64,000 nt of DNA from Parcubacteria group bacterium. GTDB lineage: Bacteria > Patescibacteriota > Minisyncoccia > Moranbacterales > GCA-2747515. The position numbers were made by a program, and so were the translations under genes. Positions within the stretch are counted from its first letter, which is position 1, and every line of letters starts with the position of its first letter. The stretch covers positions 240,768 through 304,767 of the forward strand of contig JBAZXC010000002.1 of assembly GCA_041660065.1 (NCBI GenBank), in the 5' to 3' direction. Under the pieces are notes generated by a model that was not told where the DNA came from, did not search any database, and saw only the letters and a list, made by a program, of their open reading frames with translations. Positions 6,785 through 62,186 of the stretch are shown one piece after another.

Positions 6785-7072
6785 ATGTTTGATAAAATAG
6801 AAAAAAAAATACATGACATTCAAAATGAACCGGAACACATACGCTTGCGTTATCTGTGGGGTGCGGTACTCATCTCGATGATGCTTATTGTTTTTATCTG
6901 GGTCATGAGCCTCAAGACAACCTTCCTACAAGTGCGCAATGACAAAGACATGCAAAAATCGCTTGAAACACTGCAAGAACAACTCGATACGATCAAAGCT
7001 CCCACAGATCAACAGTCCGTTTCCATCGATGATCTCTTACAAAAACCTGCATCACAACAACCGGAAATGTAA
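6785..7072 (+). CDS. Small membrane protein, hypothetical
   Basis: 95-aa ORF with one TM helix (LWGAVLISMMLIVFIWVMSL) and a Gln-rich C-terminus. Confidence 0.4.
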   Translation: MFDKIEKKIHDIQNEPEHIRLRYLWGAVLISMMLIVFIWVMSLKTTFLQVRNDKDMQKSLETLQEQLDTIKAPTDQQSVSIDDLLQKPASQQPEM

Positions 7073-7259
7073 GAATACGCATCACAACGCCATTGAAATT
7101 TGGTGTTTGATATCCCTCTTCATACACGATCATCCCCATTGAAGATGGACACCAAACACAAAAACATACAGAAAACACGCACATTTTACTGTTTTTTGTA
7201 TTTTTCGTGTTTATTATTAATAAAACACCCCATCCTAAACATCTAATTTATAAACTGTT

Positions 7260-9716
7260 ATGACACAAGAAATTCAGAAACAACCACAACATCAGGTCAC
7301 CCCCCAACCGATCGTCGAAGAAATGCAAAAATCCTATCTCGAGTACGCCATGAGCGTGATCATCGCACGCGCGCTTCCCGATGTGCGTGACGGTCTCAAA
7401 CCTGTACATCGCCGCATCCTTTATTCCATGTGGAAAACAGGTCTCAAGCCAAGTGCGAAGTTCCGCAAGAGCGCAACAGTGGTAGGTGAAGTGCTCGGTA
7501 AATATCACCCACATGGTGACAGTGCGGTTTATGACACGATGGTGCGTATGGCACAGGATTTTTCTCTCCGTTACCCGCTCATTTGGGGTCAAGGAAACTT
7601 TGGATCAATGGATGGGGACAGCGCAGCGGCATATCGTTATACAGAAGCGAAACTTATGCCCATCGCTGAGGAAATGCTTTTTGATATTGAAAAAAATACC
7701 GTTGATTTTCGTCCAAACTTCGATGGCGTACACAAAGAACCGACAGTTCTCCCCGCCAAACTTCCACAACTTCTCTTAAACGGCACAATGGGTATCGCCG
7801 TTGGCATGGCAACAAACATCCCACCACACAATCTCCGCGAGCTCACCGGCGCAATTGTCCACCTCATCGACCAGCCAAAAGCAGACGTTGATGATCTATT
7901 GCAGTTTGTCACAGGTCCGGATTTCCCTACCGGAGGTATGATCTATAATCAAAAAGACATCCGCGAAGCCTATGCAACCGGCCATGGCAAAATCACAATG
8001 CGTGCAAAAGCGGATATCATTGAAAGCAAGAATGGCCAATTCTCCATTATTGTCACAGAAATCACCTACCTCACAAACAAGTCCACACTGATTGAAAAAA
8101 TTGCTTCTCTGGTAAAAGATAAAAAACTCATCGGCATCAAGGCGCTTCGTGATGAATCATCAAATAAAGATGGCGTGCGTATTGTCATGGACCTCAAAAA
8201 AGATGCCTATCCGCAAAAAGTGCTCAATCGCCTCTACACACTGACGGATCTCCAAAAGAACTTTAACGTCAATATGCTTGCGCTTGTCGATGGTATCGAA
8301 CCGCGCATTTTGAACCTCAAGGAGATCTTGGAATATTATATCTTACATCGTCGCGAAGTGATCATCAGACGCACACAATATGATCTCGACAAAGCGCGCG
8401 AACGTGCACATATTCTCGAAGGTTTGTCCAAGGCTCTAGATCATATTGATGCCGTCATTGAAACGATCAGAAAATCACAAACACGTGAAACGGCACACGA
8501 AAACCTCCGCAAACGATTTAAATTCTCTGATGTGCAAGCAACGGCAATCCTGGAAATGCGCCTGCAGACACTTGCCGGATTGGAACGCAAAAAAATCGAG
8601 GATGAACTCAAAGAAAAGATCCGCCTTATCAAGCAATTGGAAGCGATCATCAAAAGCGATAAGCTGCAAAAAAATCTCGTCAAAGATGAACTCATTGCAC
8701 TTACAGAAAAATTTGGTGATGCTCGCAAAACCAAAGTGTTCAAATCCGCCGTCGGCGAATTCAAACAAGAAGACCTCGTGCCAAATGAAGAAGCAATCAT
8801 TACGATTACCACAGACGGCTATGTCAAACGCATGAATCCTTCCGTCTATCGCGTCCAAAAACGTGGTGGCAAAGGCGTGATCGGCGCAACGACGAAAGAA
8901 GATACGAGTGTGATCCACATGCTTTCTGTCATGACACATGACAATCTCTTCTTCTTTACCAATACAGGCAAAGTTTTCCAAACAAAAGCATATGAAATTC
9001 CCGAATCCGCTCGCACCGCCAAAGGCAATGCGATCGTCAATTTCCTCCAACTGTCACAAAGTGAAGAGGTGACAGAAATCATTCCATTCAACAGTGACGA
9101 TCAGTACAAATTTCTCTTCATGGCGACAAGCAACGGTGTGGTCAAAAAAGTAAAAATTACAGATTTTGACAATGTGCGTCGATCAGGACTTATTGCGATC
9201 AACCTTGAAGCTGGTGATAAGCTTCACTGGGTCAAGCCAACCACCGGCACAGACAACGTCATCCTTTCCACAGCACACGGCCAAGCAGTACACTTCCGCG
9301 AAAACAACGTGCGTGCGATGGGACGTAACGCTTCCGGCGTACGTGGCATCAAACTCAAAAAGGATGACTACGTGGTCGGCATGGATGTCATGTTTGCCAA
9401 GCAAAAAGGTGACGAACTCTTCATCATCACAGCAAACGGCTTTGGCAAAAAAACCAAGATCTCTCAGTACAAACTCCAGCGTCGTGGCGGATCCGGCATC
9501 AAAACTGCCAAGATCACACCAAAGACCGGACTTATCGTCAGTGCACGCGTTGTGAGCGCAGATGACAATGACAGCGATGTGATCATCACAAGTGCAAACG
9601 GTCAGATCATCCGCACACCGCTCAAACACATCTCTACACTCTCACGCGCGACACAAGGCGTGCGCATCATGAAACCAAAGCCAGGCGACACGATCAGCGC
9701 CGCAACGATCTTGTAA
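7260..9716 (+). CDS. gyrA: DNA gyrase subunit A
   Basis: 818 aa. Canonical N-terminus [28 protein letters not shown], the active-site Tyr region, and a C-terminal beta-pinwheel with repeated GxxGxGxxxA-like blades. A terminator hairpin follows. Confidence 0.97.
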
Positions 9717-15351: not shown

Positions 15352-15662
15352 TGGTGCCGAGGGAGAGAATCGGACTCTCGACACAAGGATTTTCCTTATA
15401 CTGTCTTATGTTTCCATAAGGATTGGACTATATCATTCCCGCTGAGCGGGATTGGGCGCTATTTGCAGGATTATTGTTGGGACTCACCTGCTAGTCTCTA
15501 CTCCTTCCTTAACACTTTATACCCATTAAGGCTTGGATCGGGATTGTCATAATTCTATAAGAACCGTAGATTTCCCCGAATTCACCCAATTTTTCTCACT
15601 CTATATTGCTATAGAGGGGACCGAAAATTCAGTCCTTTGCTCTACCACTGAGCTACCTCGGC
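15352..15662 (-). tRNA. tRNA-Phe (GAA) interrupted by a group I intron (exons 15631..15662 and 15352..15394; CCA encoded)
   Basis: 5' exon GCCGAGGTAGCTCAGTGGTAGAGCAAAGGACT. 3' exon GAAAATCCTTGTGTCGAGAGTCCGATTCTCTCCCTCGGCACCA. Spliced product folds into a canonical cloverleaf with anticodon loop CTGAAAA. Confidence 0.8.
15395..15630 (-). ncRNA. Group I self-splicing intron (236 nt) in the tRNA-Phe anticodon loop, inserted between U33 and G34
   Basis: 5' splice site follows U, with a U.G pair in P1 (exon GGACU pairs with intron IGS GGUCC). The intron ends in omega-G (..UAUAAG|GAAAA). P2 hairpin CUCUAUA-gcaa-UAUAGAG. P3/P4 core AAAUUGGGUGAAUUCGGGGAAAUCUACGGUUC closely resembles the cyanobacterial tRNA-Leu intron core AAAUUGCGGGAAAGGGGUCAACAGCCGUUC. 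P7-like GAGACUA ... UAGUCC. Confidence 0.8.
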
Positions 15663-15683
15663 TCACTCAAATATTCATTGTTG

Positions 15684-15757
15684 TGCACGCTGAGGGATTC
15701 GAACCCCCGACCCTCTCGGTGTAAACGAGATGCTCTAACCAGCTGAGCTAAGCGTGC
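15684..15757 (-). tRNA. tRNA-Val (TAC)
   Basis: Cloverleaf GCACGCT..TTTACAC..TTCGAAT..AGCGTGC-A. Confidence 0.85.
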
Positions 15758-47819: not shown

Positions 47820-47974
47820 TTCCTTTCTCCTTTTTTAGTTAGGATAAACAACATTTTCTTGTAAAATTTTTGTCTCACATTTTGAGTCACCTTTTTCATT
47901 GTCAAATGATATTGTGGATCATCATATGGTCGGGGTATATACATTATTTTCATAATTTTACATTAATATTCCCT

Positions 47975-48050
47975 CTAAGAAACCTCTTGCCAATAAAGTT
48001 TTTTAGAGAGAAGGGATCGCTGTAAATATACAACGATCCCCCTATAGAAC
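47975..48050. repeat. Nested hairpin repeat of the CCCTCTA...TAGAGAG family with inner GGGATCG...CGATCCC stem
   Basis: CCCTCTAAGAAACCTC...TTTTTTAGAGAGAAGG outer arms. Inner stem GGGATCGCTGTAAATATACAACGATCCCC. Confidence 0.5.
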
Positions 48051-48057
48051 ATCCAAC

Positions 48058-48348
48058 CTAACTAGCTGGTAAAAACTCCATATTATTGAACTCATCCATA
48101 TTTTTAAAACGAATAAAATATGGATGAAAGTGCCTCGGCATTCTCCGCGGTCCGGCAGGTTGCTGTGCAAAGATAAAATCCTTGCGCTCAGCGACCCTGC
48201 GAATATCGACAAGATAATAGACATTCTCGCGAATTTCATCTGCAGGTACAGATCCTTCTGTTGCTGCAGGAATCACGTGAACGACTTTTCCGTTCACATA
48301 AACCGTCACAACTTTTAGGATCAAATTTACTATCGTAATTTTTTCCAT
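48058..48348 (-). CDS. Hypothetical protein
   Basis: 96-aa ORF. No motif recognised. Confidence 0.35.
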   Translation of the reverse strand: MEKITIVNLILKVVTVYVNGKVVHVIPAATEGSVPADEIRENVYYLVDIRRVAERKDFIFAQQPAGPRRMPRHFHPYFIRFKNMDEFNNMEFLPAS

Positions 48349-48397
48349 GACGTTCTCCTGTGTTGTATTATTGAACTTAACTGCGTGATATTTTCCC

Positions 48398-48475
48398 TCT
48401 ACAATATTTCTTTTTTTGTCATTCCGGACTTGATCCGGAATCTTAAAAAAATATTGTAGAGAGAGATGAGAAGGT
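48398..48475. repeat. Nested hairpin element: outer CCCTCTACAATATTT/AAATATTGTAGAGAGAG arms enclosing GTCATTCCGGAC-ttga-TCCGGAATC
   Basis: Same architecture as 51605..51685, which has outer CCCTCTAAAATATTT/AAATATTTTAGAGAGAGG arms and an inner stem carrying compensatory changes. Confidence 0.65.
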
Positions 48476-48695
48476 ATAGATTTCTACACCTTCTCATCAG
48501 CCACATTCTTTCCCTGTGGCACGGGGACATTGTTCTTCCGGGCTGCAGCACGAATCGCACTGCCCAGAGAAACAGTTAACGGTTTACTCGGCCGGCACGT
48601 ACGCTGGCGGAGCTCCTTTGCCGGGATAAAGCCAACTATTTTTGCCATTAACCGACCTCCTTTGGTTAAATTTCACACGCACATTATGTAGCGTG

Positions 48696-48783
48696 TGTAC
48701 TACATTCATCAGCTTTTTTTACGTGGGCTTCCTCCACAGTATACGTCCGTTAATTTTCAAAGCCGGACGGAGGATTTCTCTCC
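48696..48783. repeat. ~85-bp structured repeat, copy 1 of 3 (also 51536..51615 and 52768..52850)
   Basis: TCATCAGCTTTTTTTACGTGGGCTTCCTCCAC...[CGTCCG-loop-CGGACG]...GAGGATTTCTC. Copy 2 has GGTCGG/CCGACC in place of the inner stem, a compensatory double change. Confidence 0.7.
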
Positions 48784-48978
48784 TCAGTCGGGGTTGCATC
48801 TGGGACATGAAACATCATCCCAGAGACTAAACAGACGTCCGCATTCCGCGCAGAGCCTGTCCCCCTCATGCACATATGCCAAGTGATCAACCCACATCTG
48901 CGGGTTATCACTTTTCTTGGCACGAGACAATCGCTGTCGGCGACGTCTCTCCTGAGATTCTATTTTTTTATCTCTCAT
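48784..48978 (-). CDS. Small zinc-ribbon protein, hypothetical
   Basis: 64 aa, Arg-rich N-terminus, CAECG...CPRC. Overlaps the upstream ORF by 11 nt. Repeat copy 1 begins immediately after the stop. Confidence 0.4.
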   Translation of the reverse strand: MRDKKIESQERRRRQRLSRAKKSDNPQMWVDHLAYVHEGDRLCAECGRLFSLWDDVSCPRCNPD

Positions 48979-49309
48979 GATCCACCTCCTCAGGTGTTGA
49001 GATAGAACCGGGGTGAAAAGTGCCGCGTTTCCCTTTCACGGAAACATGCCCATCCATCGTTATCGAACCAACGATTGATGGCGTCTTTTCACCTCTCACA
49101 TAACAGATGCTTCCAGGAGCAATTCCTCTCGCCTTAATCTCAGCGAGACGATTATCGATCACCTGCTGATGAATGATTTTCCCGATTTGTCGGTACAACG
49201 AAAATCGTACCGCGATCGGTATGGCATCAGGATTGAGATGGGGATAATGACTTATTACCACCTTCCGATACCACTCATTTTTCATGACAAAAGTTTTTCC
49301 CATGATCAC
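48968..49309 (-). CDS. Hypothetical protein
   Basis: 113-aa ORF forming an overlapping pair with the zinc-ribbon ORF. Confidence 0.4.
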   Translation of the reverse strand: MIMGKTFVMKNEWYRKVVISHYPHLNPDAIPIAVRFSLYRQIGKIIHQQVIDNRLAEIKARGIAPGSICYVRGEKTPSIVGSITMDGHVSVKGKRGTFHPGSISTPEEVDHER

Positions 49310-49852
49310 TCCTCCGTATTTGATTTTTTTGGTTTTTTCCCTCTAACATTCCACAAATCCAAATTTATGAAATTTTAGAGAAAGGAGATGGTTTTCATTA
49401 AAAACCATCTCCACGTCGTGCATTTGCTCGGGGACGATGATGTGTCGTTTTTCCCTCCGCTTGAATATCTTCTTCTTGAAGATTTTTTTCCTACGAGGCG
49501 CACATACCCCGCGATCCTTCCCATTGTTTTGGGATTGCGAGTGGAAGCTCGCTACTTCAGAAGGCCGGATTAGCCATATTGCTTCTTTGGGTTATGAGGA
49601 GAGTGCTCTCATAATTTACCCCAAAGCCTTACACCGGAGGAACATCATCGCCCCCGTTTCCCTTTTTCAACTGCATCCGGCCAAGATGTCAGTGAAGTGA
49701 GCTTCCAACTCACGATACCGGCATCTCAGGGATGTGATGCCACTCTCTCTGTCATTTCACAAAAATTATGCGCAATGACAGAGAGAGATGAATTGATCTT
49801 TAGCTCGAATTTCTTTTCATATGCCACCCATGGTTGTTTTTGCAAGAGAATT

Positions 49853-49898
49853 ATTTCCCTCTAATATATTACGAATTATCATGAGATATTAGAGGGGA
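49853..49898. repeat. Hairpin repeat of the CCCTCTAATAT...ATATTAGAGGG family
   Basis: TTCCCTCTAATATATTACGAATTATCATGAGATATTAGAGGGGAA. Confidence 0.55.
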
Positions 49899-49914
49899 AT
49901 AATTATTTTTTGAA

Positions 49915-50484
49915 TCAAGTGTGACAATCGATAAATAATATGAAACAATCAAGAGGATATGATTTCAATATTTTTTGAAACCTTTTTTTCCATATCTCAA
50001 ATTCTTTTTCGTTACTTTCACCCACGCGTATAAAATATTGGTCACTTGTAATCATTTTACAATCTGGAGTAAAAATAGCATGTTCAACAAATTCTTCATT
50101 CTTGAGCACATCTTCAATCATACAAACATCATAAACATTCCAATAATCAAACATTCCATGAGGATTTTTATCACGCATAACATAATATCTGCCATTTTCA
50201 ATGCCACTGGATAGATCACAATTCCAATTCTTTATTTTTTCCAAAATTGATTTTTTATTGTTTATATCCGTACTCCCATTCTTCAATATTCTGTCAACCT
50301 CATCCTGAGCATAATAAACCTTATATGGCTTCACCTTTTTGTCTATATCATAATGATTAAGAGGTTTAAAAAGCTTTCCTGTAAAATAATTCATAAAATT
50401 ATACTTGTCATTTTCTATTTTATTTTTTACATCCTCTCTGAGACTAAATTCAAATGGTATTACGGCAACAATTGTATAATGCAT
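49915..50484 (-). CDS. Hypothetical AT-rich protein (foreign-looking)
   Basis: 189 aa. Very low GC relative to its neighbours. No recognised motif. Confidence 0.45.
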   Translation of the reverse strand: MHYTIVAVIPFEFSLREDVKNKIENDKYNFMNYFTGKLFKPLNHYDIDKKVKPYKVYYAQDEVDRILKNGSTDINNKKSILEKIKNWNCDLSSGIENGRYYVMRDKNPHGMFDYWNVYDVCMIEDVLKNEEFVEHAIFTPDCKMITSDQYFIRVGESNEKEFEIWKKRFQKILKSYPLDCFILFIDCHT

Positions 50485-51125
50485 ATTTTTGTCAAAATCT
50501 ATAAACGTAATTACACTATTATTCCTCTAATATCTTACAAAAATATTTTATAAAATATGAGAGAAAAGCGAAGTTTTCTCGTTGAAATAATGATCCTATT
50601 TTATCCAATCCATAGAAACAAAGATTGGACAAAAAAAATAGCGCGTTTCGTGTCACACCTGGCAGCAAATGGTCAGACACGATTGGTGTTTGGAAGAATC
50701 AATATTCTTCCGCGAGGAGAAGTGACTGCCAGATCACACTACCTCTTACACTACAACTTGCACGAGAGTCATTAGATACTCTGCGATTGCTTGTTGCTTT
50801 TGCTTGATTTTGGTATTCTTTTACCAAAATGTTCGCAAGGGATCTCCGTATGTGGAGCGCTACCTCCCACCGACCCCCGGTATTAGCATCATTCATATAT
50901 CGAAAGATACTAATATCGAATGTCGACAGAATATAAATTATTAATGTGTGTATATTTTTCCTCAAATAATTTCAAATAATATTTTAGAAATTAGAGAAAA
51001 GCGAAGTTTTCTCGTTGAAATTTTACAGGATGTGTTGATCCCAACCTTGTTTTTTGCCCGGAATTGTGACAAGGATGTTCCCGTTTGTTTTTCATCGGCT
51101 TGGCGGGAGTCCGATTACGCTTGCG

Positions 51126-51440
51126 TTACTCTGCAGGCTTGGGGATGGCTTTCTTCCCCTTGGCAGGCCCGGTACGACCACTCAGGCTTTTGCCAAACTT
51201 CTCCAAAAACGGTTGATATTGCATCCGCTCTTGGTTCCGCTTGGCCGCCTCAGCTTCGGATTGTTCTAGCCCATAAAAAGGCACGAACTTTCCTTCAGCT
51301 TTTGCCTGCCTGGCGAGCTGTGCCCGACACTTCAGGCACACCGGAGTGGTCACCCACACCCCCTTCTCCTTGCGGAGGGCGAGAGAATGATTGACTGCGG
51401 TGCCATTACCAGCGTGTACTGCACAATAATCTTTTCCCAT
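51126..51440 (-). CDS. Hypothetical small Cys-containing basic protein
   Basis: 104 aa. CAVH...CLKC. Lys/Ala-rich C-terminus. Confidence 0.4.
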   Translation of the reverse strand: MGKDYCAVHAGNGTAVNHSLALRKEKGVWVTTPVCLKCRAQLARQAKAEGKFVPFYGLEQSEAEAAKRNQERMQYQPFLEKFGKSLSGRTGPAKGKKAIPKPAE

Positions 51441-51535
51441 AAGTCACCTCCGTGAAAATGGATTGATCTTGGATGGTTTTTTCGACACTATGCCGAATTT
51501 ATGTCGGTCATCCATACATACCCCGACAGAAATAT

Positions 51536-51615
51536 TTCATCAGCTTTTTTTACGTGGGCTTCCTCCACTTTTAGGTCGGTTAAATATTCAAAACCCGACC
51601 GAGGATTTCTCCCTC
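51536..51615. repeat. ~85-bp structured repeat, copy 2
   Basis: CATCAGCTTTTTTTACGTGGGCTTCCTCCACTTTTAGGTCGGTTAAATATTCAAAACCCGACCGAGGATTTCTCC. Confidence 0.7.
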
Positions 51616-51685
51616 TAAAATATTTCTTATGGATTCCCGATCAGGTCGGGAATGACAGGTAAAAAATATTTTAGAGAGAGGAAAT
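51605..51685. repeat. Nested hairpin element: outer CCCTCTAAAATATTT/AAATATTTTAGAGAGAGG arms enclosing GATTCCCGATCAGGTCGGGAATGAC (minus orientation)
   Basis: Direct read. Inner stem TTCCCGA/TCGGGAA, versus TTCCGGA/TCCGGAA in the 48398 copy. Confidence 0.65.
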
Positions 51686-51803
51686 ATGACATTGCATTAT
51701 TTCCTACTTCTTGTGACATGTGACCGCTTTGTCTGAGCGTTCTGGAGCTTCCCCAGAATATTATTTGTCAGTTTTTACACCCTCATGACATGGAGGGTTT
51801 ACC

Positions 51804-52013
51804 TCATGGAAAAAGGTCGAGGATCGCGATGACTACCTCATCCCGATTATGGGTCATACAAAAATGCTCACGACCCAAACCGTTGATGTAGTACGTTCTC
51901 GAACGAATTCCTTTCCGCAGACCCTTACCACAAAAGAGACAGGAATGATCCTTGCGGTTTCTGACGATCTGGGCATTCATAGCGCCCTTGACTACGTTAG
52001 GAACTCTCCTCAT
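51804..52013 (-). CDS. Small zinc-ribbon-like protein, hypothetical
   Basis: 69 aa. CLFCG...H.C..H. Confidence 0.35.
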   Translation of the reverse strand: MRRVPNVVKGAMNAQIVRNRKDHSCLFCGKGLRKGIRSRTYYINGLGREHFCMTHNRDEVVIAILDLFP

Positions 52014-52767
52014 AGACCCTCCTTGTTATTGATCTGTATTTGTTTAAAATCTCTCTAATACTTCACAAAGGTTTATTTTGAGCATATTGAGACACAAAAA
52101 AACTTCGCAAGAAAATTTATGTCCTTTAGGCTAAATATATTTACTATTTAGATAGCCCGATCTCAACCTTTGCGAAGTTTTAGAGAGAGGAAAGCGTGTG
52201 AGATTTTTTAAAAAAATTCTCACTTAAGCGTTGGCTTTCCGGGCAACGGTAATATTAAACTTCTCATCTGTGCAATCAGACAAGAAGCACATTGCAAAAC
52301 GTCGATAACGTTTTGCAATGCCCACAGAGTTTCTTAGTCATCTGTGGGTAGTGTGTGAAAAAATAGTGAACTAGATTGATCATGATAACCGAGTTTGCTA
52401 TAACTTCACTTTAGTTTGATTTTAAGGCACGTTTCTTGTGCCAAGGGAGACCATCTCCCTCATCAAACAGCCCGCCTGCCCCATATCAACGGTTCTTGGT
52501 ATAAACCAACCATCTCTAAGAAAGATGGAGGAGTTTGGCTCTGCACGCCTACACACTGCGCTCCGCACGCCTTTATAAATAGGTTATATACAACCTATCA
52601 CTCGTGTGTATTATCCCAATGCTATAAAGCGACAGGGATTATTAATCGCGTCTTGCTATTACACAAGGAATTCATATTTTTGGGTATTTCCCTCTAATAT
52701 CTCACAAAATATTATATGAGATCTTAGAGAGAAGAGATATTGATATGATAAATAATATCTCTACAAC

Positions 52768-52850
52768 GAGTTTCATCAGCTTTTTTTACGTGGGCTTCCT
52801 CCACAGTATACGTCCGTTAAACATTAAAGCCGGACGGCGGATTTCTCCCC
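52768..52850. repeat. ~85-bp structured repeat, copy 3
   Basis: TCATCAGCTTTTTTTACGTGGGCTTCCTCCACAGTATACGTCCGTTAAACATTAAAGCCGGACGGCGGATTTCTCC. Confidence 0.7.
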
Positions 52851-52867
52851 GCGGGTTGATACTATAA

Positions 52868-53104
52868 CTACGGAACGATCACGCCATATGTTGCTAATCT
52901 GGCGTGGAGATCATGGATCAGATCCTTGGAAGAAGCTTCAATCCGAATCTCGCCATGATGACCAATCTCACAGCTAATCCATTTTTCCTGCACAAAACAG
53001 CGATGTGCAGATGGTGCTTCGAGATCAATATCCTTATGGCATCGCGGACACCTACCCATAAGGCCGATACCCACAAGCCTTCCAATCCGTTTCATTTCAA
53101 TCAT
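52868..53104 (-). CDS. Small zinc-ribbon protein, hypothetical
   Basis: 78 aa. CPRCH...HRC...C..GHH. Repeat copy 3 lies 17 nt after its stop. Confidence 0.4.
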   Translation of the reverse strand: MIEMKRIGRLVGIGLMGRCPRCHKDIDLEAPSAHRCFVQEKWISCEIGHHGEIRIEASSKDLIHDLHARLATYGVIVP

Positions 53105-53129
53105 GGTAATCCCCCTAGTTAATTTATTG

Positions 53130-53258
53130 TAATATTCCCCTCGTTTCTTCCTAAAAATCTGTCATTCTGGACATGATTCGGAATTATGGATCAGTGTTTC
53201 ATGTTATTAAAGATCCTGAATCGCGCTCAGGATGACAAGAGCGCTTTTAAGAATAAAC
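53130..53258. repeat. Composite hairpin element: outer CCCTCGTTTCTTC/AAGAATAAACGAGGG arms enclosing two GTCAT...GGAATC-family hairpins
   Basis: Inner hairpins GTCATTCTGGACATGATTCGGAATT and GATCCTGAATCGCGCTCAGGATGAC. Confidence 0.55.
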
Positions 53259-53712
53259 GAGGGAAATATTAAATTGTTAAAGAAAATGAGAGAAATATCT
53301 TTAGTTCATTTAAATTATTGTACTTTTACCACCAATAGCTCATCATCACTGATAAGTAACGGCTTGGTGTGCCTGTAATACATGTGAACTGGTTTCTTGT
53401 GAAAAATGGTCGATTATATATTACTAAAAACCTATATTTCACTTATATTGTCACATGTATTACAACCATTCTGCCGATTGGATGTACTTACACCCTCCCG
53501 CACAGATCAGTCTTATGTCAAAGTAAAATAACTATCTTTGTTGTGCTACAGCCCTGTGTCATCTCGATCACTTCACTGTAACAACATAGTATATCATGCC
53601 AAAATTATTTTGTCAAGTGTCACTGACAATATATAGACATACACGCATTATTATTCTAATTTAAGGCTTTTTTTAAATTTTTATAAGATAATTCGCGTGG
53701 ACATTTTTAAAA

Positions 53713-53737
53713 ATGATGGCGTGATTTACGCCATCAT
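53713..53737. promoter_or_regulatory. Perfect 10-bp-arm palindrome (ATGATGGCGT-gattt-ACGCCATCAT) about 58 bp upstream of the -35; candidate operator
   Basis: Direct read. Not followed by a T-run, so unlikely to be a terminator. Confidence 0.4.
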
Positions 53738-53794
53738 GCAAAATTTACCGATGGATACGCCGTGCAGAGTTCCACACTGACCTGTTCACGGGTA

Positions 53795-53823
53795 TTGACA
53801 ATTATTTAAAACCATGCTATAGT
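53795..53823 (+). promoter_or_regulatory. Near-consensus sigma-70 promoter
   Basis: TTGACA, 17-nt spacer, TATAGT. Confidence 0.7.
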
Positions 53824-53829
53824 GTATCT

Positions 53830-54258
53830 TGGCTATGGCAGGAACAATATTTCTGTCTATCCGACGAAACATTGTTCTTTAAACATAAACCGCAACCCCT
53901 CACAAGCAAGAGGTTGCACAGAAGGAAGAGGCGTTACACAAGAGAGATTGGCTTTCTTGCGTAGCAAAGCTTTTAACTGGCAACCTTAACGTGGAGGTGT
54001 TGCTATGGGTTGTTGATATAGACCAAATTGGACCGTGAATGCCTCGTCTCGCTTGTTTAGGAGATGAGGTGTCCAAGACTTCCAATTGGTTTCTATTGAC
54101 GATTCATAAAAAAATATGAAGGAGAACATCATGGGTCTGTAGCCTGTATTGTTGAGCAATTTTCACAATCAACAAAATCCGTTGAAGAAAATTCATGAGT
54201 AAAAAATCCATCCAGTATTCTTCTGGATAACTGCAGTAAAATCCTGAGTTGGCTTATA
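53830..54258 (+). ncRNA. Candidate ~430-nt non-coding RNA of unknown class
   Basis: No plus-strand ORF of 60 aa or more between the consensus promoter (53795..53823) and a 12-bp-stem terminator (54221..54260). An early hairpin GAACAAT...ATTGTTC-TTT sits at 53846..53882. No tmRNA, RNase P RNA or SRP RNA hallmarks recognised by eye. Confidence 0.45.
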
Positions 54259-55905: not shown

Positions 55906-56613
55906 TTATTGCCGGATATCCACAATTTTAATATCTGCTTTTTTAAATATGTCGACAAATGTATTCATTTTTTCCTGTGAGAGCGGTTTCTTCTTTTCAA
56001 ATGCAGGATCAAGCGTCACCTCCGGACGAAACGTTTGGAGATAGAGCTTATCACTCCCTTCCAACAATTGCGCCATTTCTTTGACAATCTCCTCTGTGTG
56101 CACGCCATCGATCACTGTTGTGCGAAATTCATATGGCACACTATTTTTTTTGAGTAAATTGATACTTTTTACGATGTTTTTCGGATTTGCCAGATCGCCT
56201 GCCAATTCTTTATAGCGTTGTGGCGTCGTTTTGACATCCATTGCTACATAATCCACCAGATGTTCTTTGATAAGAGAAATGAGGACATCCGGCAAATTGC
56301 CGTTTGTATCCAATTTTACAAGATATCCCAATGCACGAACTTTTTTGATGAATTCCTTGAGATCAGGTTGCACCGTTGGCTCCCCGCCCGAGATCACCAA
56401 TCCATCCAACTTCCCTTTTCGTGATCGCAAAAAATTCAAAATTGTTTTTTCAGAAATAAAGCTCGGACGCAACTTCACAATCTCTTGTGGCAAAACGAAC
56501 TCTTTATTATGACAAAAACGGCAGCGCATATTACACCCGGGGGTGAAAATGATCGCTGCCACTTTGTCTGGATAATCCAGGAGAGTAAACGGTTGTACAC
56601 CGCTAATCAGCAT
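55906..56613 (-). CDS. nrdG: Anaerobic ribonucleoside-triphosphate reductase activating protein (radical SAM)
   Basis: CNMRCRFCHN radical-SAM cluster motif. GGEPT. Confidence 0.85.
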   Translation of the reverse strand: MLISGVQPFTLLDYPDKVAAIIFTPGCNMRCRFCHNKEFVLPQEIVKLRPSFISEKTILNFLRSRKGKLDGLVISGGEPTVQPDLKEFIKKVRALGYLVKLDTNGNLPDVLISLIKEHLVDYVAMDVKTTPQRYKELAGDLANPKNIVKSINLLKKNSVPYEFRTTVIDGVHTEEIVKEMAQLLEGSDKLYLQTFRPEVTLDPAFEKKKPLSQEKMNTFVDIFKKADIKIVDIRQ

Positions 56614-56791
56614 ATTTATCGCTGAAAGACTCGTTTGCTGCGACGCATTCTTGAAAATGCTTGCGTGAATAATGTTCTGATTTCTTTCCCGTGTTAAAAA
56701 AAGATACCGGGCGGAAATACCCCATTACTCGTGTCCACACTTCACAGCGTGTGCGCTCTCCATCTGTGCATTGCAACTTTTGTGATGCCAT
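56603..56791 (-). CDS. Stand-alone glycyl-radical module (NrdD C-terminal-like, 62 aa)
   Basis: MASQKLQCTDGERTRCEVWTRVMGYFRPVSFFNTGKK: the RVxGY glycyl-radical signature and flanking residues align to the E. coli NrdD C-terminus (VYRVTRICGYLGSP...WNKGK). Own ATG, 37 nt after the nrdD stop and in a different frame. Overlaps the nrdG start by 11 nt. Confidence 0.6.
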   Translation of the reverse strand: MASQKLQCTDGERTRCEVWTRVMGYFRPVSFFNTGKKSEHYSRKHFQECVAANESFSDKYAD

Positions 56792-56828: not shown

Positions 56829-58943
56829 TTATTTGTCGGGCATAGCACTTTCATAGCGCCCACGGAACTCACTGTCACAACAACTTTTTTTCACACCCAA
56901 TTCCTGATCACATTTTGGACAAAAATCATATTCCCCATCGAGGTAACCGTGTTTCGGACAGATCGAGAATGTCGGCGTGATCGTGATATACGGCAATCGA
57001 TAGTTTGTCAGGATCTTTTTTACCAACTGAGCACACGCCTTACCGGAACTGATGCGCTCACTCATATAACCATGAAATACCGTGCCTCCCGTATATTTTT
57101 TTTGCAATTCATCCTGGAGATCCAACGCTTCGAAAATATCATCTGTATATCCCACAGGCAACTGCGTGGAGTTTGTGTAGTATGGTGCTTCTTTGGTGCC
57201 TGCTTGAATGATATCCTTAAATTGTTTTTGATCTTCTTTTGCAAAGCGATATGTCGTTCCCTCACCCGGTGTCGCTTCCAGATTATACAGATTTCCTGTT
57301 TCCTCTTGAAACTCCGACATCTTTTCTCGTATCTGATCCAGTACTTCTTTGGCAAACTCTTGTCCATATTTTGTCGTGATATTCTCTTTATCACCTGTAA
57401 AGTTGCGAATTGCCTCATTCATCCCATTCACACCGATCGTAGAGAAATGATTGTTCAACTTTCCGAGATATCGCTTTGTGTATGGAAACAATCCGCGATT
57501 CATCCACTTCTCGATCACTTCCCTTTTGATCTCAAGCGACGTCTTTGCCAATCCCATGAGATACATCACTCTTTCAATGAATTTTTCTTTGTCTCCTGCA
57601 CACGTTTTTCCGATGCGCGCCATATTGATCGTCACCACACCAATCGATCCCGTCATTTCTGCTGATCCGAAGAGACCACCACCTCTCTTGCGCAATTCTT
57701 TCAAATCCAATTGTAAACGACAACACATTGAACGCACATCACTTGGATTGAGGTCTGAATTGATGAAATTCTGGAAATACGGTGTTCCATACTTTGCCGT
57801 CATTTCAAAAAGTGGCAATACTTTTGGATCATTCCAATCAAAGTCCTTTGTAATATTGTATGTCGGAATGGGAAATGTGAATGTACGCCCCTTTGAATCC
57901 CCCGCCATCATCACATCAATAAATGCTCTATTAATGAGATCCATCTCTTTTTGCAGTTCTCCAAATGTATAATCAAATGGCTTGCCTCCGAGAATCAGTG
58001 TTTTTTTCTTGAGATCTTCCGGACATACCCAATCAAGTGTAATGTTGGTAAACGGCGTTTGTGTGCCCCATCGCGACGGAATATTGAGATTAAATACAAA
58101 TGATTGAATATTCTGATAGACAAAATTGTAAAGCACTTCATCATAATATGCCTCTTCTTTTTCTTTTGATGCAAATACCATGCCATACTTCTCGATCATT
58201 TTTCGCAACTCCAACTCTTTTTTCTTTACAAACGGTGCCAAATAGGTATCAAAGCTAGAAAAAGCTTGTGCACCAGCCCACTCATTTTGCAGCGTGCCCA
58301 AAAAATTGATCATTTGCGCCACTGCGCTTGAAAGATGCTTTGGTGGTTTGGACTCTACCTTATTAGACACACCATTAAACCCCTCCTCAAGCAATGTCCG
58401 CAGACTCCATCCCGCACAATATCCGGAAAACATATCGAGATCATGGATGTGAATATCGGCATTTCTATGCGCCTCACCAATAGATTTTGGATAAACATGT
58501 GACAACCAATAATTTGCAGTTACCTTTCCGGCAGTATTGAGGATCATTCCGCCCAACGAATATCCCTGATTGGAATTAGCATTTACCCGCCAATCCAGCT
58601 GATCAAGGTATTCGCTCATGGTCTTTTCCACATCTACCATCACATTTTTATCAGATCGCGCTTCAGTTCTCTTTTGTCTATACAAAATATAGTCCTTTGC
58701 AATACGAGGAAAATTGAAGTTAATAAGCGCTTCCTCTACGGCATCTTGTATTTGCTCCACAGACGGGATCTCTTCACCATAACGCTCAATGATCTTTTTC
58801 TCTGCATGATGTGCAATTTTCTTGGCATCAAAACCTTTTTCCGGCTCAGATGCTTGCGCCGCTTTTGTAATCGCTTTTTCAATCTTTATTATGTCAAAAT
58901 CTACAATTGTGCCATTTCTTTTTTTAATTTTGTGTATCGCCAT
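56829..58943 (-). CDS. nrdD: Anaerobic ribonucleoside-triphosphate reductase (class III) catalytic body; lacks the glycyl-radical motif in-frame
   Basis: N-terminal ATP-cone (IKKRNGTIVDFDIIKIEKAI). Zn-ribbon CPKHG...CPKC near the C-terminus. The protein ends ...KKSCCDSEFRGRYESAMPDK with no RVxGY. Confidence 0.9.
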   Translation of the reverse strand: MAIHKIKKRNGTIVDFDIIKIEKAITKAAQASEPEKGFDAKKIAHHAEKKIIERYGEEIPSVEQIQDAVEEALINFNFPRIAKDYILYRQKRTEARSDKNVMVDVEKTMSEYLDQLDWRVNANSNQGYSLGGMILNTAGKVTANYWLSHVYPKSIGEAHRNADIHIHDLDMFSGYCAGWSLRTLLEEGFNGVSNKVESKPPKHLSSAVAQMINFLGTLQNEWAGAQAFSSFDTYLAPFVKKKELELRKMIEKYGMVFASKEKEEAYYDEVLYNFVYQNIQSFVFNLNIPSRWGTQTPFTNITLDWVCPEDLKKKTLILGGKPFDYTFGELQKEMDLINRAFIDVMMAGDSKGRTFTFPIPTYNITKDFDWNDPKVLPLFEMTAKYGTPYFQNFINSDLNPSDVRSMCCRLQLDLKELRKRGGGLFGSAEMTGSIGVVTINMARIGKTCAGDKEKFIERVMYLMGLAKTSLEIKREVIEKWMNRGLFPYTKRYLGKLNNHFSTIGVNGMNEAIRNFTGDKENITTKYGQEFAKEVLDQIREKMSEFQEETGNLYNLEATPGEGTTYRFAKEDQKQFKDIIQAGTKEAPYYTNSTQLPVGYTDDIFEALDLQDELQKKYTGGTVFHGYMSERISSGKACAQLVKKILTNYRLPYITITPTFSICPKHGYLDGEYDFCPKCDQELGVKKSCCDSEFRGRYESAMPDK

Positions 58944-59346
58944 AATTATTTGTTTCAGATAATAATCCCGTAATATTTGTCATCAACTGTCTTTACCCTC
59001 AAATCCAGTTACAAACATTGTGTTTTGGCGGAAAAAGAAAGAAGTAAGAAAAAAATTCCTCACCCCTCATTGTCCGTAGAATAATTATAGCACATAATTA
59101 TTTTTATGAAAAGGGTAACATATCCACAGAATACATAAACATACTATATGTTGTGCTTTACCATTTATACCTACCACAAGTAGATTTTTCATATTGACAT
59201 GAAACTTTTTATGTTTCGTTTATAAATAAAATAATATTTTTCTCTTATAAAAATTTCCTTCCTGCATATTTTTTATAATTAACAACAAAATATACATTTT
59301 GTCAAGTATTTAAACTTGGCCAAAAAATATTATTCAAACACTCCCC

Positions 59347-59960
59347 ATTGTTCCACGTGGAACAATATATCTGTTTTTTTATAAATCATTACAAATGATT
59401 TATAGTACGATGTCTTTTATACAGATTCTGTAAAATAACAAATTTTTCTATCATAAATACAAAGTTATCTCATTTTTATTTTGTTCCACGTGGAACAAAA
59501 TGTATTGCATACGACTTTTTTGCAAAAAATTCAATAAGGTTGCCAAGTTGCAATTGTTCCACGTGGAACAATTGCAAAAATTTTCACATATATTATAACA
59601 AAATACACTAAAAAATATCATGATCTGCACATTTTGTTCCACGTGGAACAAAATATTTTCATGATAGATCTATATACAAAAATATTTTTCCGGTATCAAA
59701 GAGGGAAATAGCCCGACGTTTGATTATAAAAAATACTGAATGTTCCACGTGGAACAAAAAATTATACAGACTTTATAAATAAATAGGCATATTTACTATA
59801 TAAATCGATTTCAATATCTTACCAAAGAAAAATTATATGAAAATTGGTTCTAAAAATTGTTCCACGTGGAACAATTGCGGTAAATCTGTACAAACATTTT
59901 ATATTACGCCAGCATTATGTTTACAATATATAAAAAATTATATTGTTCCACGTGGAACAA
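59347..59960. repeat. Array of seven 18-20-bp perfect palindromes TTGTTCCACGTGGAACAA (parS-like, TGTTCCAC half-sites), spaced 71-131 bp, in an AT-rich ORF-free region upstream of nrdD
   Basis: Copies centred near 59356, 59489, 59563, 59642, 59749, 59866 and 59952. Several extend to 22-30-bp palindromes (e.g. TTGCAATTGTTCCACGTGGAACAATTGCAA). The B. subtilis parS is TGTTCCACGTGAAACA. Confidence 0.75.
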
Positions 59961-60121
59961 AACGGAATTGAAAAGGGAAGTTTGTGGTCTATACTGAAAT
60001 TAATGTATTGACATTATCCTATTTTATGTTGTTATGCTATTTTATATTGATTATCCTCTATTTATATGGTACATTATGAACACTTTTCTATCTATGCATT
60101 ACCATATCAATGCAAAAAATT

Positions 60122-60193
60122 GCCTCTGTAGTTTAGTGGATAAAACAAGTCACTCCTAAGGACTAGAGAAAGGTTCGACTCCTTTCAGAGGCA
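60122..60193 (+). tRNA. tRNA-Arg (CCT)
   Basis: GCCTCTG..GTTTAGTGGATAAAAC..AGTCA-CTCCTAA-GGACT..TTCGACT..CAGAGGC-A. Confidence 0.7.
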
Positions 60194-60251
60194 CACTCAT
60201 TTCAATTGATTCTAAAAATTTTATTTCTTATTATTAAGAACATCATATCAT

Positions 60252-60581
60252 ATGCGCGCTCGTACAAAAAAAATTAATTCCCTCATACAGCAACAAATGG
60301 CTGAGTTGCTTGTAAAAAATGTTGATTTTAAGCCAAATGCCTTTGTAACGATCTCGAAGGTTGACACCACGGATGATCTGCGCTACACTCGGATATTCGT
60401 GCGTGTATATCCGACCGCGGAAATCAACTATGGTCTAAAAACACTTGAGCACGAAAAGAAAACTTTGCAAAAATTGTTGCATCAAAAGTTGCACATCAAA
60501 ATTCTTCCTCGCATCTCATTTATACATGATAAAACAGGTGAAGATGCTGATGAGATTGAGCGTCTTTTGCAGCAAGCATAG
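60252..60581 (+). CDS. rbfA: Ribosome-binding factor A
   Basis: RTKKINSLIQQQMAELL...DLRYTRIFVRVYP...ILPRISFIHD. Confidence 0.85.
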   Translation: MRARTKKINSLIQQQMAELLVKNVDFKPNAFVTISKVDTTDDLRYTRIFVRVYPTAEINYGLKTLEHEKKTLQKLLHQKLHIKILPRISFIHDKTGEDADEIERLLQQA

Positions 60582-60602: not shown

Positions 60603-61586
60603 GTGCATATGGAGATTAAACCACTGTTTCACAAAGAATTTAATACTCTGGACTATATTTTGCACAGAGCACACTCTGTTGTTTTGGTAGCGCATAATAA
60701 TCCAGATTTGGATGCAGCGGGAAGCACCGTTGCATTGGCAGACGTCATACGCAAACATTACAAAAAAAATGTTGTTATTGCGTGTTATAATACTTTTCCT
60801 GACTCTCTCAAAGAAGTTATGGAAGGTATTGTTTTTGTGCATCCTGAAAAACTAGATCTTGCCTCCTTTGATGTAGCAATTGGTTGTGACAGCGTAGAAC
60901 GAGGATTTGATCGTCTCATGGAACATCTTTCCCCTGCGTGTGTCAGCGTAACCATCGATCATCATCATGACATTGCCCTCAAGACCGACCTACGCATTAT
61001 CGATGGAAAATATGCGGCAACATGCGAGATATTATATAATTTTTTCGTACATATAAAATGCGATTTCAATAAAAATATCGCCACGGCACTCCTTGCCGGG
61101 ATTATCGGAGACACCGGTGCATTTCAACATGCCAACACAACTGCAGAAATATTACAAATTTCCGCAGATCTTATCAAAAGAGGTGCATCAATAACAAAAA
61201 TTATCTCCACATTGTTCGCAAACCGAAAAATTGAGACATTGAATTTGTGGGGAAAAGCATTGGAAAAAACAAAATTTTACGAAAAAACAGGACTCGCCGT
61301 CACAGCAATTACTGAAGATAACATTGCCGGACACGCCGTAAATGGTGTGGAAATTTCCAATATTGCATCCATGCTCACGACAGTGCCGACAGTAAAGATC
61401 GCACTCATCGTTTATCAGGCAGACAAAAATACCGTCAAGGGAAGTTTGCGCGCAGAGAAACATGCCAATATAGATGTATCAGAGATCGCACATCGCATTG
61501 GCGGTGGCGGACATCCTTTGGCGAGCGGTTTTTCATTGCATGGTCATTTGGAAACCACTTCGGATGGTGGCTGGCACGTTGTATAA
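60603..61586 (+). CDS. nrnA: DHH-family phosphoesterase (NrnA-like bifunctional oligoribonuclease/pAp phosphatase)
   Basis: VVLVAHNNPDLDAAGS. TIDHHHD (DHH motif). DHHA1-like C-terminus GGGGH. Confidence 0.85.
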   Translation: MHMEIKPLFHKEFNTLDYILHRAHSVVLVAHNNPDLDAAGSTVALADVIRKHYKKNVVIACYNTFPDSLKEVMEGIVFVHPEKLDLASFDVAIGCDSVERGFDRLMEHLSPACVSVTIDHHHDIALKTDLRIIDGKYAATCEILYNFFVHIKCDFNKNIATALLAGIIGDTGAFQHANTTAEILQISADLIKRGASITKIISTLFANRKIETLNLWGKALEKTKFYEKTGLAVTAITEDNIAGHAVNGVEISNIASMLTTVPTVKIALIVYQADKNTVKGSLRAEKHANIDVSEIAHRIGGGGHPLASGFSLHGHLETTSDGGWHVV

Positions 61587-61595
61587 TAGTGGTAT

Positions 61596-62186
61596 ATGAA
61601 TATCAAAAATCAAAAATTACAAAAACTTAACGAAACTATGCATGTACTATGTGCTTGCACGCTCAAAGCAACGGCAACACACGTTGTACCGGGCAAGGGA
61701 AGTGCGGATGCAAAAATCATGTTTATCGGTGAGGCTCCTGGCGCAAAAGAGGATGCCCTGGGAGAACCATTTGTCGGTGCGGCAGGGAAATTTTTGAGCG
61801 AATTATTGGCAACAATTGATCTTAAAAGGGAAGATATTTATATTACAAATGTCGTGAAATATCGTCCGCCGGAAAATCGCGACCCTTTGCCAGAAGAGGT
61901 TGCTGATTGCTGGTTGTGGCTACAAGAGCAAGTAAAGCTGATCGACCCGCTGCTCATTGTACCACTTGGTCGCCACGCACTTGAACGCTTCGTGCCCGGA
62001 AGACGTATTTCTCTGGATCATGGCAAAGCATTTCGCCGTACGATTGATGGACTCGGCGAACGAGTATATTATGCGCTTTATCACCCTGCGGCAGCACTCT
62101 ATAATGGGGGATTGCGTCAAACACTTTTTGATGATTTTATAAACATTCCAAAGATCATTAGCAAGATCGAGAAAGGTAAGAGATAA
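61596..62186 (+). CDS. Uracil-DNA glycosylase, family 4
   Basis: [38 protein letters not shown]...HPAAAL. Confidence 0.85.

Follow-up and report, generated by a model that had tools for sequence, protein, structure and literature searches.

A dense array of perfect parS-type palindromes, probably a chromosomal centromere, in a Moranbacteria-like genome

A 64-kb stretch of contig JBAZXC010000002.1 (the window, meaning the whole of the DNA analysed) carries, in the gene-free gap between nrdD and tRNA-Arg(cct), seven copies of the 16-bp palindrome TGTTCCACGTGGAACA, which is the fully symmetric form of the consensus for parS, the binding site of ParB. We consider it very probable that the seven palindromes constitute a chromosomal parS centromere array that loads ParB, and this would most likely be an unusually dense but ordinary ParB loading site. 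Three lines of evidence lead to this reading: (i) the canonical identity of the sites, (ii) the linkage of this 16-mer to parAB in other phyla, and (iii) the site-specific conservation of the palindromes in relatives.

Seven identical palindromes in one gene-free gap

The palindromes are confined to a single region. Searching the window with the 18-mer TTGTTCCACGTGGAACAA, with up to three mismatches allowed, returned seven matches, starting at 59348, 59481, 59554, 59634, 59740, 59857 and 59943, and none elsewhere in the 64 kb, compared with a chance expectation of 0.04 ± 0.20; seven matches were reached in 0 of 100 shuffles. The 18-mer is exact in six of the seven copies, the remaining one, at 59740, having A for T at position 1, and the 16-bp palindrome is exact in all seven. 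Sites 1 to 7 occupy positions 59349..59364, 59482..59497, 59555..59570, 59635..59650, 59741..59756 (where the flanking base differs, the 18-mer reading ATG...CAA), 59858..59873 and 59944..59959, respectively, and are assigned to neither strand.

The whole array (59349..59959) therefore amounts to seven sites in 611 bp, or ~11 per kb, in keeping with an earlier, sequence-only reading that had counted seven palindromes in ~610 bp. The spacings of 71–131 bp given in that reading were slightly off: the measured start-to-start distances are 133, 73, 80, 106, 117 and 86 bp (a range of 73–133 bp). Spacing is irregular, with no helical phasing of the sites, and Tandem Repeats Finder reported neither a tandem array nor a fixed period over them. 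The spacers between sites are 57–117 bp long, have a GC content of 18–30% and are mutually unrelated in sequence, so that repetition is limited to the palindrome with a few flanking A/T bases (16–24 nt). The array occupies the middle of a divergent intergenic region (58944..60121) between the nrdD start codon and tRNA-Arg(cct). This gap of 1178 bp has a GC content of 26.7%, compared with 40.0% for the window, which bears out the earlier description of an AT-rich region free of open reading frames (ORFs). The only ORFs in the gap encode 66 and 44 amino acids, and both read through the stop-free palindromes; neither has a Pfam match or is kept in relatives. An Rfam search of the gap revealed no family besides the tRNA.

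All seven copies are exact 16-bp palindromes matching the parS pattern tGTTNCACGTGAAACa. The half-site TGTTCCAC is common to Bacillus subtilis parS, as the sequence-only reading had recognized, and the complete site is one base apart from the Myxococcus xanthus parS consensus TGTTCCACGTGGAACG; the M. xanthus ParB binds a DNA fragment carrying its parS sites in gel shifts (PMC3899335). We also scanned reference genomes, one per species, for two perfect 16-mers 50–80 bp apart, and examined each locus as an 8-kb block. The scan yielded at least 120 loci. Among the 120 listed, which span Acidobacteriota, Bacillota, Actinomycetota, Bacteroidota, Planctomycetota, Verrucomicrobiota, Patescibacteria and others, a Spo0J/ParB homologue is present in the same 8-kb block in 48, and ParA or ParB in 52. 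Close-packed perfect parS sites are therefore common, and typically associated with parAB. Moreover, 24 of the 120 listed loci hold at least five sites within 1 kb, and M. xanthus has 22 sites in 3 kb, so the earlier reading was mistaken in its premise that parS sites on chromosomes are as a rule dispersed.

That reading had likened the cluster both to a nucleation site for ParB and to a plasmid-style centromere. The former is strongly supported by the comparisons made here, which point to a putative ParB-loading array, whereas the latter is contradicted by the chromosomal genes and by the lack of tandem iterons. Housekeeping genes fill the window (gyrA, pnp, ftsH, tilS, rpsA, cmk, ldh, comM, radC and eight tRNAs), and the replicon is therefore chromosomal. 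A plasmid iteron centromere in the style of sopC or parC was accordingly rejected, the array having no fixed period, unrelated spacers, chromosomal neighbours and no adjacent parAB. A clustered regularly interspaced short palindromic repeat (CRISPR) array, with repeats of 23–50 bp, uniform spacers and usually cas genes, was also rejected: the repeat is 16–18 bp, and the spacers are AT-rich and 57–117 bp long. No Cas family occurs among the Pfam matches of the subset of window ORFs scanned.

Conservation in close relatives and the relation to nrdD

Genomic contexts of relatives were obtained through look-ups of NrnA homologues. Loci L123–125, with an NrnA 94% identical to that of the window (longest contig, 89 kb), carry six parS sites in the gap. 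L126 (a 1.18-Mb JGI contig) and L127 (a 1.55-Mb ENA contig), each with an NrnA at 72% identity, carry five and eight sites, respectively, and L133 (a 130-kb NCBI contig, 67%) carries seven. The gene order nrdG, nrdD, gap, tRNA-Arg(cct), rbfA, nrnA, udg is kept in L123–L127 and L133, with a gap length of 1.1–1.7 kb. With up to two mismatches allowed, the 20-kb contexts of the relatives contain no parS-like copy beyond the arrays.

Pairwise alignment of the window with L123 separates the sites sharply from their surroundings: parS positions are identical at 96 of 96, and the remaining gap positions at 517 of 688 (75%; Fisher p = 2e-11), with the flanking genes 90–93% identical. Site by site, site 1 is identical in L123, site 3 is kept in L123, and site 7 is kept in L123 and L127. 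Site 2 aligns to perfect sites in L123, L126 and L127, site 4 is a block of columns without any change among the four genomes of the alignment, and site 6 aligns with sites in the same three relatives, its L127 counterpart bearing a CpG-to-TpG change. Site 5, together with ~117 bp, is an indel between the window and L123, where six sites are present. In L126 and L127 the spacers are essentially unalignable with those of the window, and perfect 16-mers persist. Identical sites amid diverged spacers imply that purifying selection acts on the sites one by one, while their number turns over. The comparison thus demonstrates, at the level of sequence, that selection keeps each 16-mer intact while the spacers, the number of sites and even the host gene (see below) change.

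The position of the array upstream of nrdD (56829..58943, minus strand; 704 amino acids, with Pfam NRDD, PF13597, E = 2e-177, and an ATP-cone) had led the sequence-only reading to consider an operator array instead. Under such an explanation the palindromes would bind a factor other than ParB that controls nrdD–nrdG and/or the divergent tRNA-Arg–rbfA–nrnA–udg genes. The array does lie between divergent genes, tRNA-Arg–rbfA stays its neighbour across the clade, and the palindrome core CACGTG belongs to a common type of factor-binding palindrome. We nevertheless regard an operator as very improbable. The link to nrdD is confined to one sub-clade, that of the window itself (L123–L127 and L133), with no nrdD near the array in L122, L116, L105 or L132; the neighbour across the wider clade is tRNA-Arg–rbfA. 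Arrays of 7–19 unphased copies over 0.6–1.5 kb, often within an ORF, are unlike an operator, and irregular, unphased spacing is more readily reconciled with sites that load independently than with an operator bound cooperatively. The identical 16-mer also occurs beside parAB in unrelated phyla. Finally, 405 bp separate the array from the start codon of nrdD, and nrdD has a conserved upstream block of its own, 165–240 bp nearer to the gene.

This nrdD-proximal block (59120..59183, minus strand), which is not part of the centromere, is made up of columns invariant in four genomes, and lies in a part of the gap near nrdD (~59030–59185) where blocks are invariant in the window, L123, L126 and L127. 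Three elements stand out: ATATCCACAGAAT at 59120–59132, which is invariant and one mismatch from a DnaA box; an element at ~59141–59155 that ends in an invariant TTGTG and reads GCACAACATATTGTGC in L127; and CCACAAGTAG at 59174–59183, invariant in the four aligned genomes. NrdR boxes are ~16 bp long (acaCwAtATaTwGtgt), lie near the nrd promoter and are usually paired, and the second element appears to resemble such a box. The conserved blocks at 59120–59183 are probably the nrdD control region. A NrdR operator formed by the palindromes themselves was rejected, as the parS 16-mer is unlike the NrdR consensus, lies 405 bp off and is unlinked to nrdD in distant relatives.

Beyond nrdD on the minus strand lie a 62-amino-acid ORF and then the radical-SAM activase. 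The short ORF (56603-56791, minus strand), in another frame and 37 nt downstream of nrdD, contains the NrdD C-terminal region and matches the NRDD model over its final ~40 positions, the glycyl-radical end. Gene calls in L123, L124, L126, L127 and L133 likewise show nrdD in two pieces, which speaks for a conserved split or programmed frameshift and against an error of sequencing. On the opposite side of the gap, tRNA-Arg(cct) (60122..60194) anchors the array and is followed, also on the plus strand, by rbfA (60252-60581), nrnA (60603-61586; DHH/DHHA1, NrnA-like) and udg (61596-62186), which encodes a uracil-DNA glycosylase. Directly upstream of tRNA-Arg, at 60013-60067, is an 18-bp tandem repeat, ATTATCCTATTTTATATTG, of ~2.9 copies, which contains TTATCC and overlaps a TTGACA promoter-like hexamer; it is kept in L123, and not in L126 or L127.

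Arrays within coding genes of distant relatives

The genome scan also provided, among the matches listed, ten more distant loci of the candidate-phyla-radiation type (L010, L011, L024/L115, L039, L062, L093, L105, L116, L119 and L122), and protein look-up provided L132. Each of these carries 4–17 perfect sites in ~0.3–1.5 kb. tRNA-Arg(cct) adjoins the array in eight of the distant loci listed, often with tRNA-Ala(ggc); the tRNA-Arg(cct) side is found beside the array in L122, L116, L105, L062, L119, L093, L039, L115 and L132. The neighbours rbfA–nrnA are present in L122, L116, L062 and L132, with udg too in L122, L116 and L132, and nrdD is near the array in none of the ten loci or L132.

The setting of these arrays differs from that of the window. 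In L122 (4840-6591, plus strand), an intact ORF of 583 codons, which encodes a multi-pass membrane protein, contains the 13 sites, with nearly all motifs falling between hydrophobic segments. Sites within ORFs are read in three frames, encoding MFHVEH, NVPRGT or CSTWN. Full-length homologues of the L122 ORF are found in L105 (41% identity, E = 1e-121), L119, L024, L011, L093, L116, L039 and L010. In L132 (9389-11275, plus strand), all 17 perfect sites are inside an intact 629-codon frame, which matches a profile hidden Markov model (HMM) of the family end to end (E = 1e-207). A database search returned 407 homologues, many of them annotated as or matching O-antigen ligase (PF04932; the Wzy_C family, hereafter Wzy). 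Peptides encoded by parS, from 1 to 19 per protein, are present in all of the best 120 of the 407, a proportion that is biased upward because the search favours proteins sharing short words with the query. Protein length rises by ~7.8 amino acids per motif (r = 0.60).

Within individual arrays, the pair atgttccacgtggaacatttggatgacaaaacacaaaatgttccacgtggaacattt is present twice in L122 (5339-5400 and 5861-5920), and in L011 a unit of three sites, spaced 50/41 bp apart, occurs three times (7008-7798). These duplicated multi-site units point to array growth by local duplication. As for the window, a decayed Wzy gene beneath its array was rejected, since tblastn and the family HMM matched parS-encoded peptides only, on both strands and in all frames.

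Taken across the clade, these observations suggest a broader reading, which we put forward tentatively, as a possibility somewhat short of probable. The centromere of Moranbacteria and allied Parcubacteria may be an array of perfect parS sites that evolves fast, lies apart from parAB and is anchored at tRNA-Arg–rbfA. In many lineages it would have grown by local duplication to as many as 17–19 sites, inserted in frame into the loops of a membrane protein of the O-antigen-ligase family; the window would then hold the same centromere without a host gene. If so, selection acts on the DNA sites whatever the coding context, and the clade offers a natural series for how bacterial centromeres grow, shrink and move. 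The in-frame arrays of the related genomes are a more unusual observation than the array of the window.

Three of the distant loci (L105, L116 and L062) belong to metagenome-assembled genomes labelled Bdellovibrionales or Pseudobdellovibrionaceae, and are Moranbacteria-like at the parS/tRNA-Arg locus. All three have parS beside tRNA-Arg(cct), L116 and L062 also have rbfA–nrnA, and the array is embedded in the Wzy gene in L105 and L116. These taxonomic labels are probably wrong. The host of the window is itself an uncultivated, Moranbacteria-like organism of the candidate phyla radiation: among named homologues of its NrnA, the closest belong to 'Candidatus Moraniibacteriota' or Moranbacteria, at up to 69% identity. 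Over 9.6 kb, the window is matched at 100% identity by a Logan contig of run SRR18595301. Two further features of the window lie away from the array. A full-length group I intron (Rfam RF00028, 79.6 bits) at 15404-15640 on the minus strand sits among clustered tRNA genes, immediately downstream of tRNA-Val(tac) (15683-15757). In addition, ~6.3 kb at ~47900-54200 has no ORF of more than 189 amino acids and no tandem repeats, a low coding density that is unusual for a small-genome bacterium; the L123 counterpart has short gene calls only.

ParB, the replication origin and known centromeres

Several results weigh against a parS centromere. Neither ParB nor ParA was found in the 64-kb window, either by tblastn with B. 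subtilis Spo0J and Soj or with profile HMMs built from 53 ParB and 52 ParA ORFs, as the sequence-only reading had also reported for parAB. The same HMMs found no ParA or ParB in ~300 kb of the relatives' loci, including ~20 kb around the arrays. In L133, five of the seven sites have one mismatch. No parS site lies within ~20 kb of rbfA in L128–131 and L134, which represent two Moranbacteria lineages, and the anchor position is therefore clade-specific and not phylum-wide. Our literature search found no paper on ParB/parS in the candidate phyla radiation, Parcubacteria or Moranbacteria. A single weak match to Soj was rejected as a formate–tetrahydrofolate ligase. With no parAB within ~20 kb of the array in any relative examined, the centromere would be detached from its presumed par genes; we infer that a cognate ParB, with the helix-turn-helix and the CTP-binding GERRxRA motif of its family, exists in this lineage, that it binds at the array and that the origin is close.

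The lack of ParB in the window and the relatives' loci, together with the mismatches in most L133 copies and the scoring of three copies as terminator-like hairpins with T-runs, could alternatively be explained by non-functional or selfish palindromic repeats (similar to repetitive extragenic palindromes or miniature inverted-repeat transposable elements, or stacked terminators), or by a relic centromere that has lost its ParB. We regard this explanation as very improbable. The identity of 96 of 96 parS positions beside spacers at 75% indicates ongoing selection, and the repeats are not dispersed, all copies lying in one array. At only 16–18 bp, the repeat is without terminal structure or target duplication, nor is it CRISPR-like, being short, separated by spacers of 57–117 bp and accompanied by no cas genes that we noticed. 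Terminators in particular were rejected: hairpin-plus-T matches exist, but the flanking genes diverge from the gap, and terminators are thus not needed there. As a separate observation, the CpG-to-TpG variant TGTTCCATGTGGAACA recurs independently in L126 (9253), L127 (8966), L119 (7325) and L133 (within 8024-8735); this recurrent change at the central CpG could reflect array decay or mutation driven by cytosine methylation.

That no ParA is seen near any array in the clade is also compatible with sites served by a ParB-family protein without ParA (e.g. for SMC loading only), or by a ParB paralogue with another role. Precedents exist in the ParB–parS–SMC systems without ParA of Streptococcus pneumoniae and Staphylococcus aureus (review PMC7333895). 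We consider such an arrangement unlikely, if less so than an operator or a relic, and it is a sub-variant of the best explanation, not a true alternative to it. At its specificity positions, moreover, the half-site TGTTCCAC is of the parS type and not the Noc-binding type.

The AT-rich gap might also be the replication origin, or part of a bipartite origin, with the palindromes being origin-associated, a reading that is compatible with parS sites. In its favour are the gap itself (1.18 kb, 26.7% GC, between divergent genes), the raw cumulative GC skew of the window, which is lowest at ~59–61 kb, the conserved ATATCCACA at 59120, one mismatch from a DnaA box, and the 18-bp tandem repeat with TTATCC at 60013-60067. 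However, raw skew follows gene strand. When coding and replication terms were separated using genes on both strands, the replication term was about zero in L123, and across the array its sign did not change in the window, L126, L127 or L133. DnaA boxes are not enriched, the gap having one outside the tRNA gene compared with ~0.8 expected from the window-wide density, and no dnaA was found in the window, a weak test that used tblastn with a DnaA domain IV fragment only. In distant relatives, moreover, the array is inside a coding gene, leaving no room for an origin. For the parS interpretation, proximity to the origin is presumed. The array is probably not at the origin itself, and an origin in the gap is highly unlikely.

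For a parS array, the standard model would predict that a ParB dimer recognizes each 16-bp site (review PMC7333895), binds cytidine triphosphate, closes into a clamp and slides onto the flanking DNA. With seven independent, unphased sites in 611 bp, the array would multiply the rate of loading and gather ParB into a single focus, and the resulting compact ParB–DNA complex would be used by ParA and/or SMC to separate sister chromosomes. The same rationale for multiple loading sites has been proposed for the clustering in Caulobacter (PMC5815017). For annotation, the element is best labelled as a parS centromere, not as an nrdD operator or a repeat of no assigned role. Why the number of parS sites varies, and what drives their clustering, are regarded as open questions (PMC7333895). 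The clade provides a graded series in this respect, from 5–8 intergenic sites with insertions and deletions of whole sites between close relatives, through single-base decay in one lineage, to 13–19 in-frame sites in a membrane-protein gene. As the series uses the perfect consensus site, gain and loss within arrays can be studied from sequence alone. The 611-bp, seven-site array is, in addition, a compact natural substrate for ParB loading assays.

Among known centromeres, sopC of the F plasmid consists of twelve tandem units of 43 bp, each containing an inverted repeat of 16 bp. Both elements pack many ParB-type binding palindromes into about half a kilobase, but sopC is a strict tandem repeat beside sopAB on a plasmid, whereas the array of the window has unrelated spacers, is chromosomal and has no adjacent par genes. 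The Spo0J sites of B. subtilis (consensus TGTTNCACGTGAAACA) share the half-site with the window, and each 16-bp palindrome there is bound by a ParB dimer, as is generally known and has been reviewed (PMC7333895). They are dispersed, however, the strongest four being 5–39 kb apart (PMC5815017), compared with 73–133 bp in the window. In Caulobacter crescentus, 5–7 parS sites lie within ~5 kb (the five strongest within 5 kb), ~8 kb from ori (PMC5815017), and it has been proposed that ParB reaches a higher local concentration through their clustering (Tran et al. 2018). This tight cluster, in which some sites are also inside genes, similarly acts as one ParB nucleation zone, but at a density ~10x lower and with sites off consensus; its origin proximity and ParB occupancy have been measured, whereas the array of the window is known from its sequence.

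The closest described system is the parS cluster of M. xanthus, with 22–24 sites in ~3 kb, ~4 kb upstream of parA (Iniesta 2014, PMC3899335), and the array of the window is an element of that kind: in both, 16-bp palindromes that are nearly identical are densely arrayed on a chromosome, with consensus sequences one base apart. The two differ in density (~7 sites per kb in M. xanthus versus ~11 in the window), in that the window copies are all perfect and symmetric, and in the host, which is here a small-genome bacterium of the candidate phyla radiation. They differ also in the distance to the par genes, as the window is without parAB in the 59 kb on one side of the array and the remaining 4 kb on the other, and its relatives in a flank of 10–12 kb on each side. 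Dense chromosomal parS arrays are thus already known, and the window provides a further example, which is denser and in which every copy is perfect.

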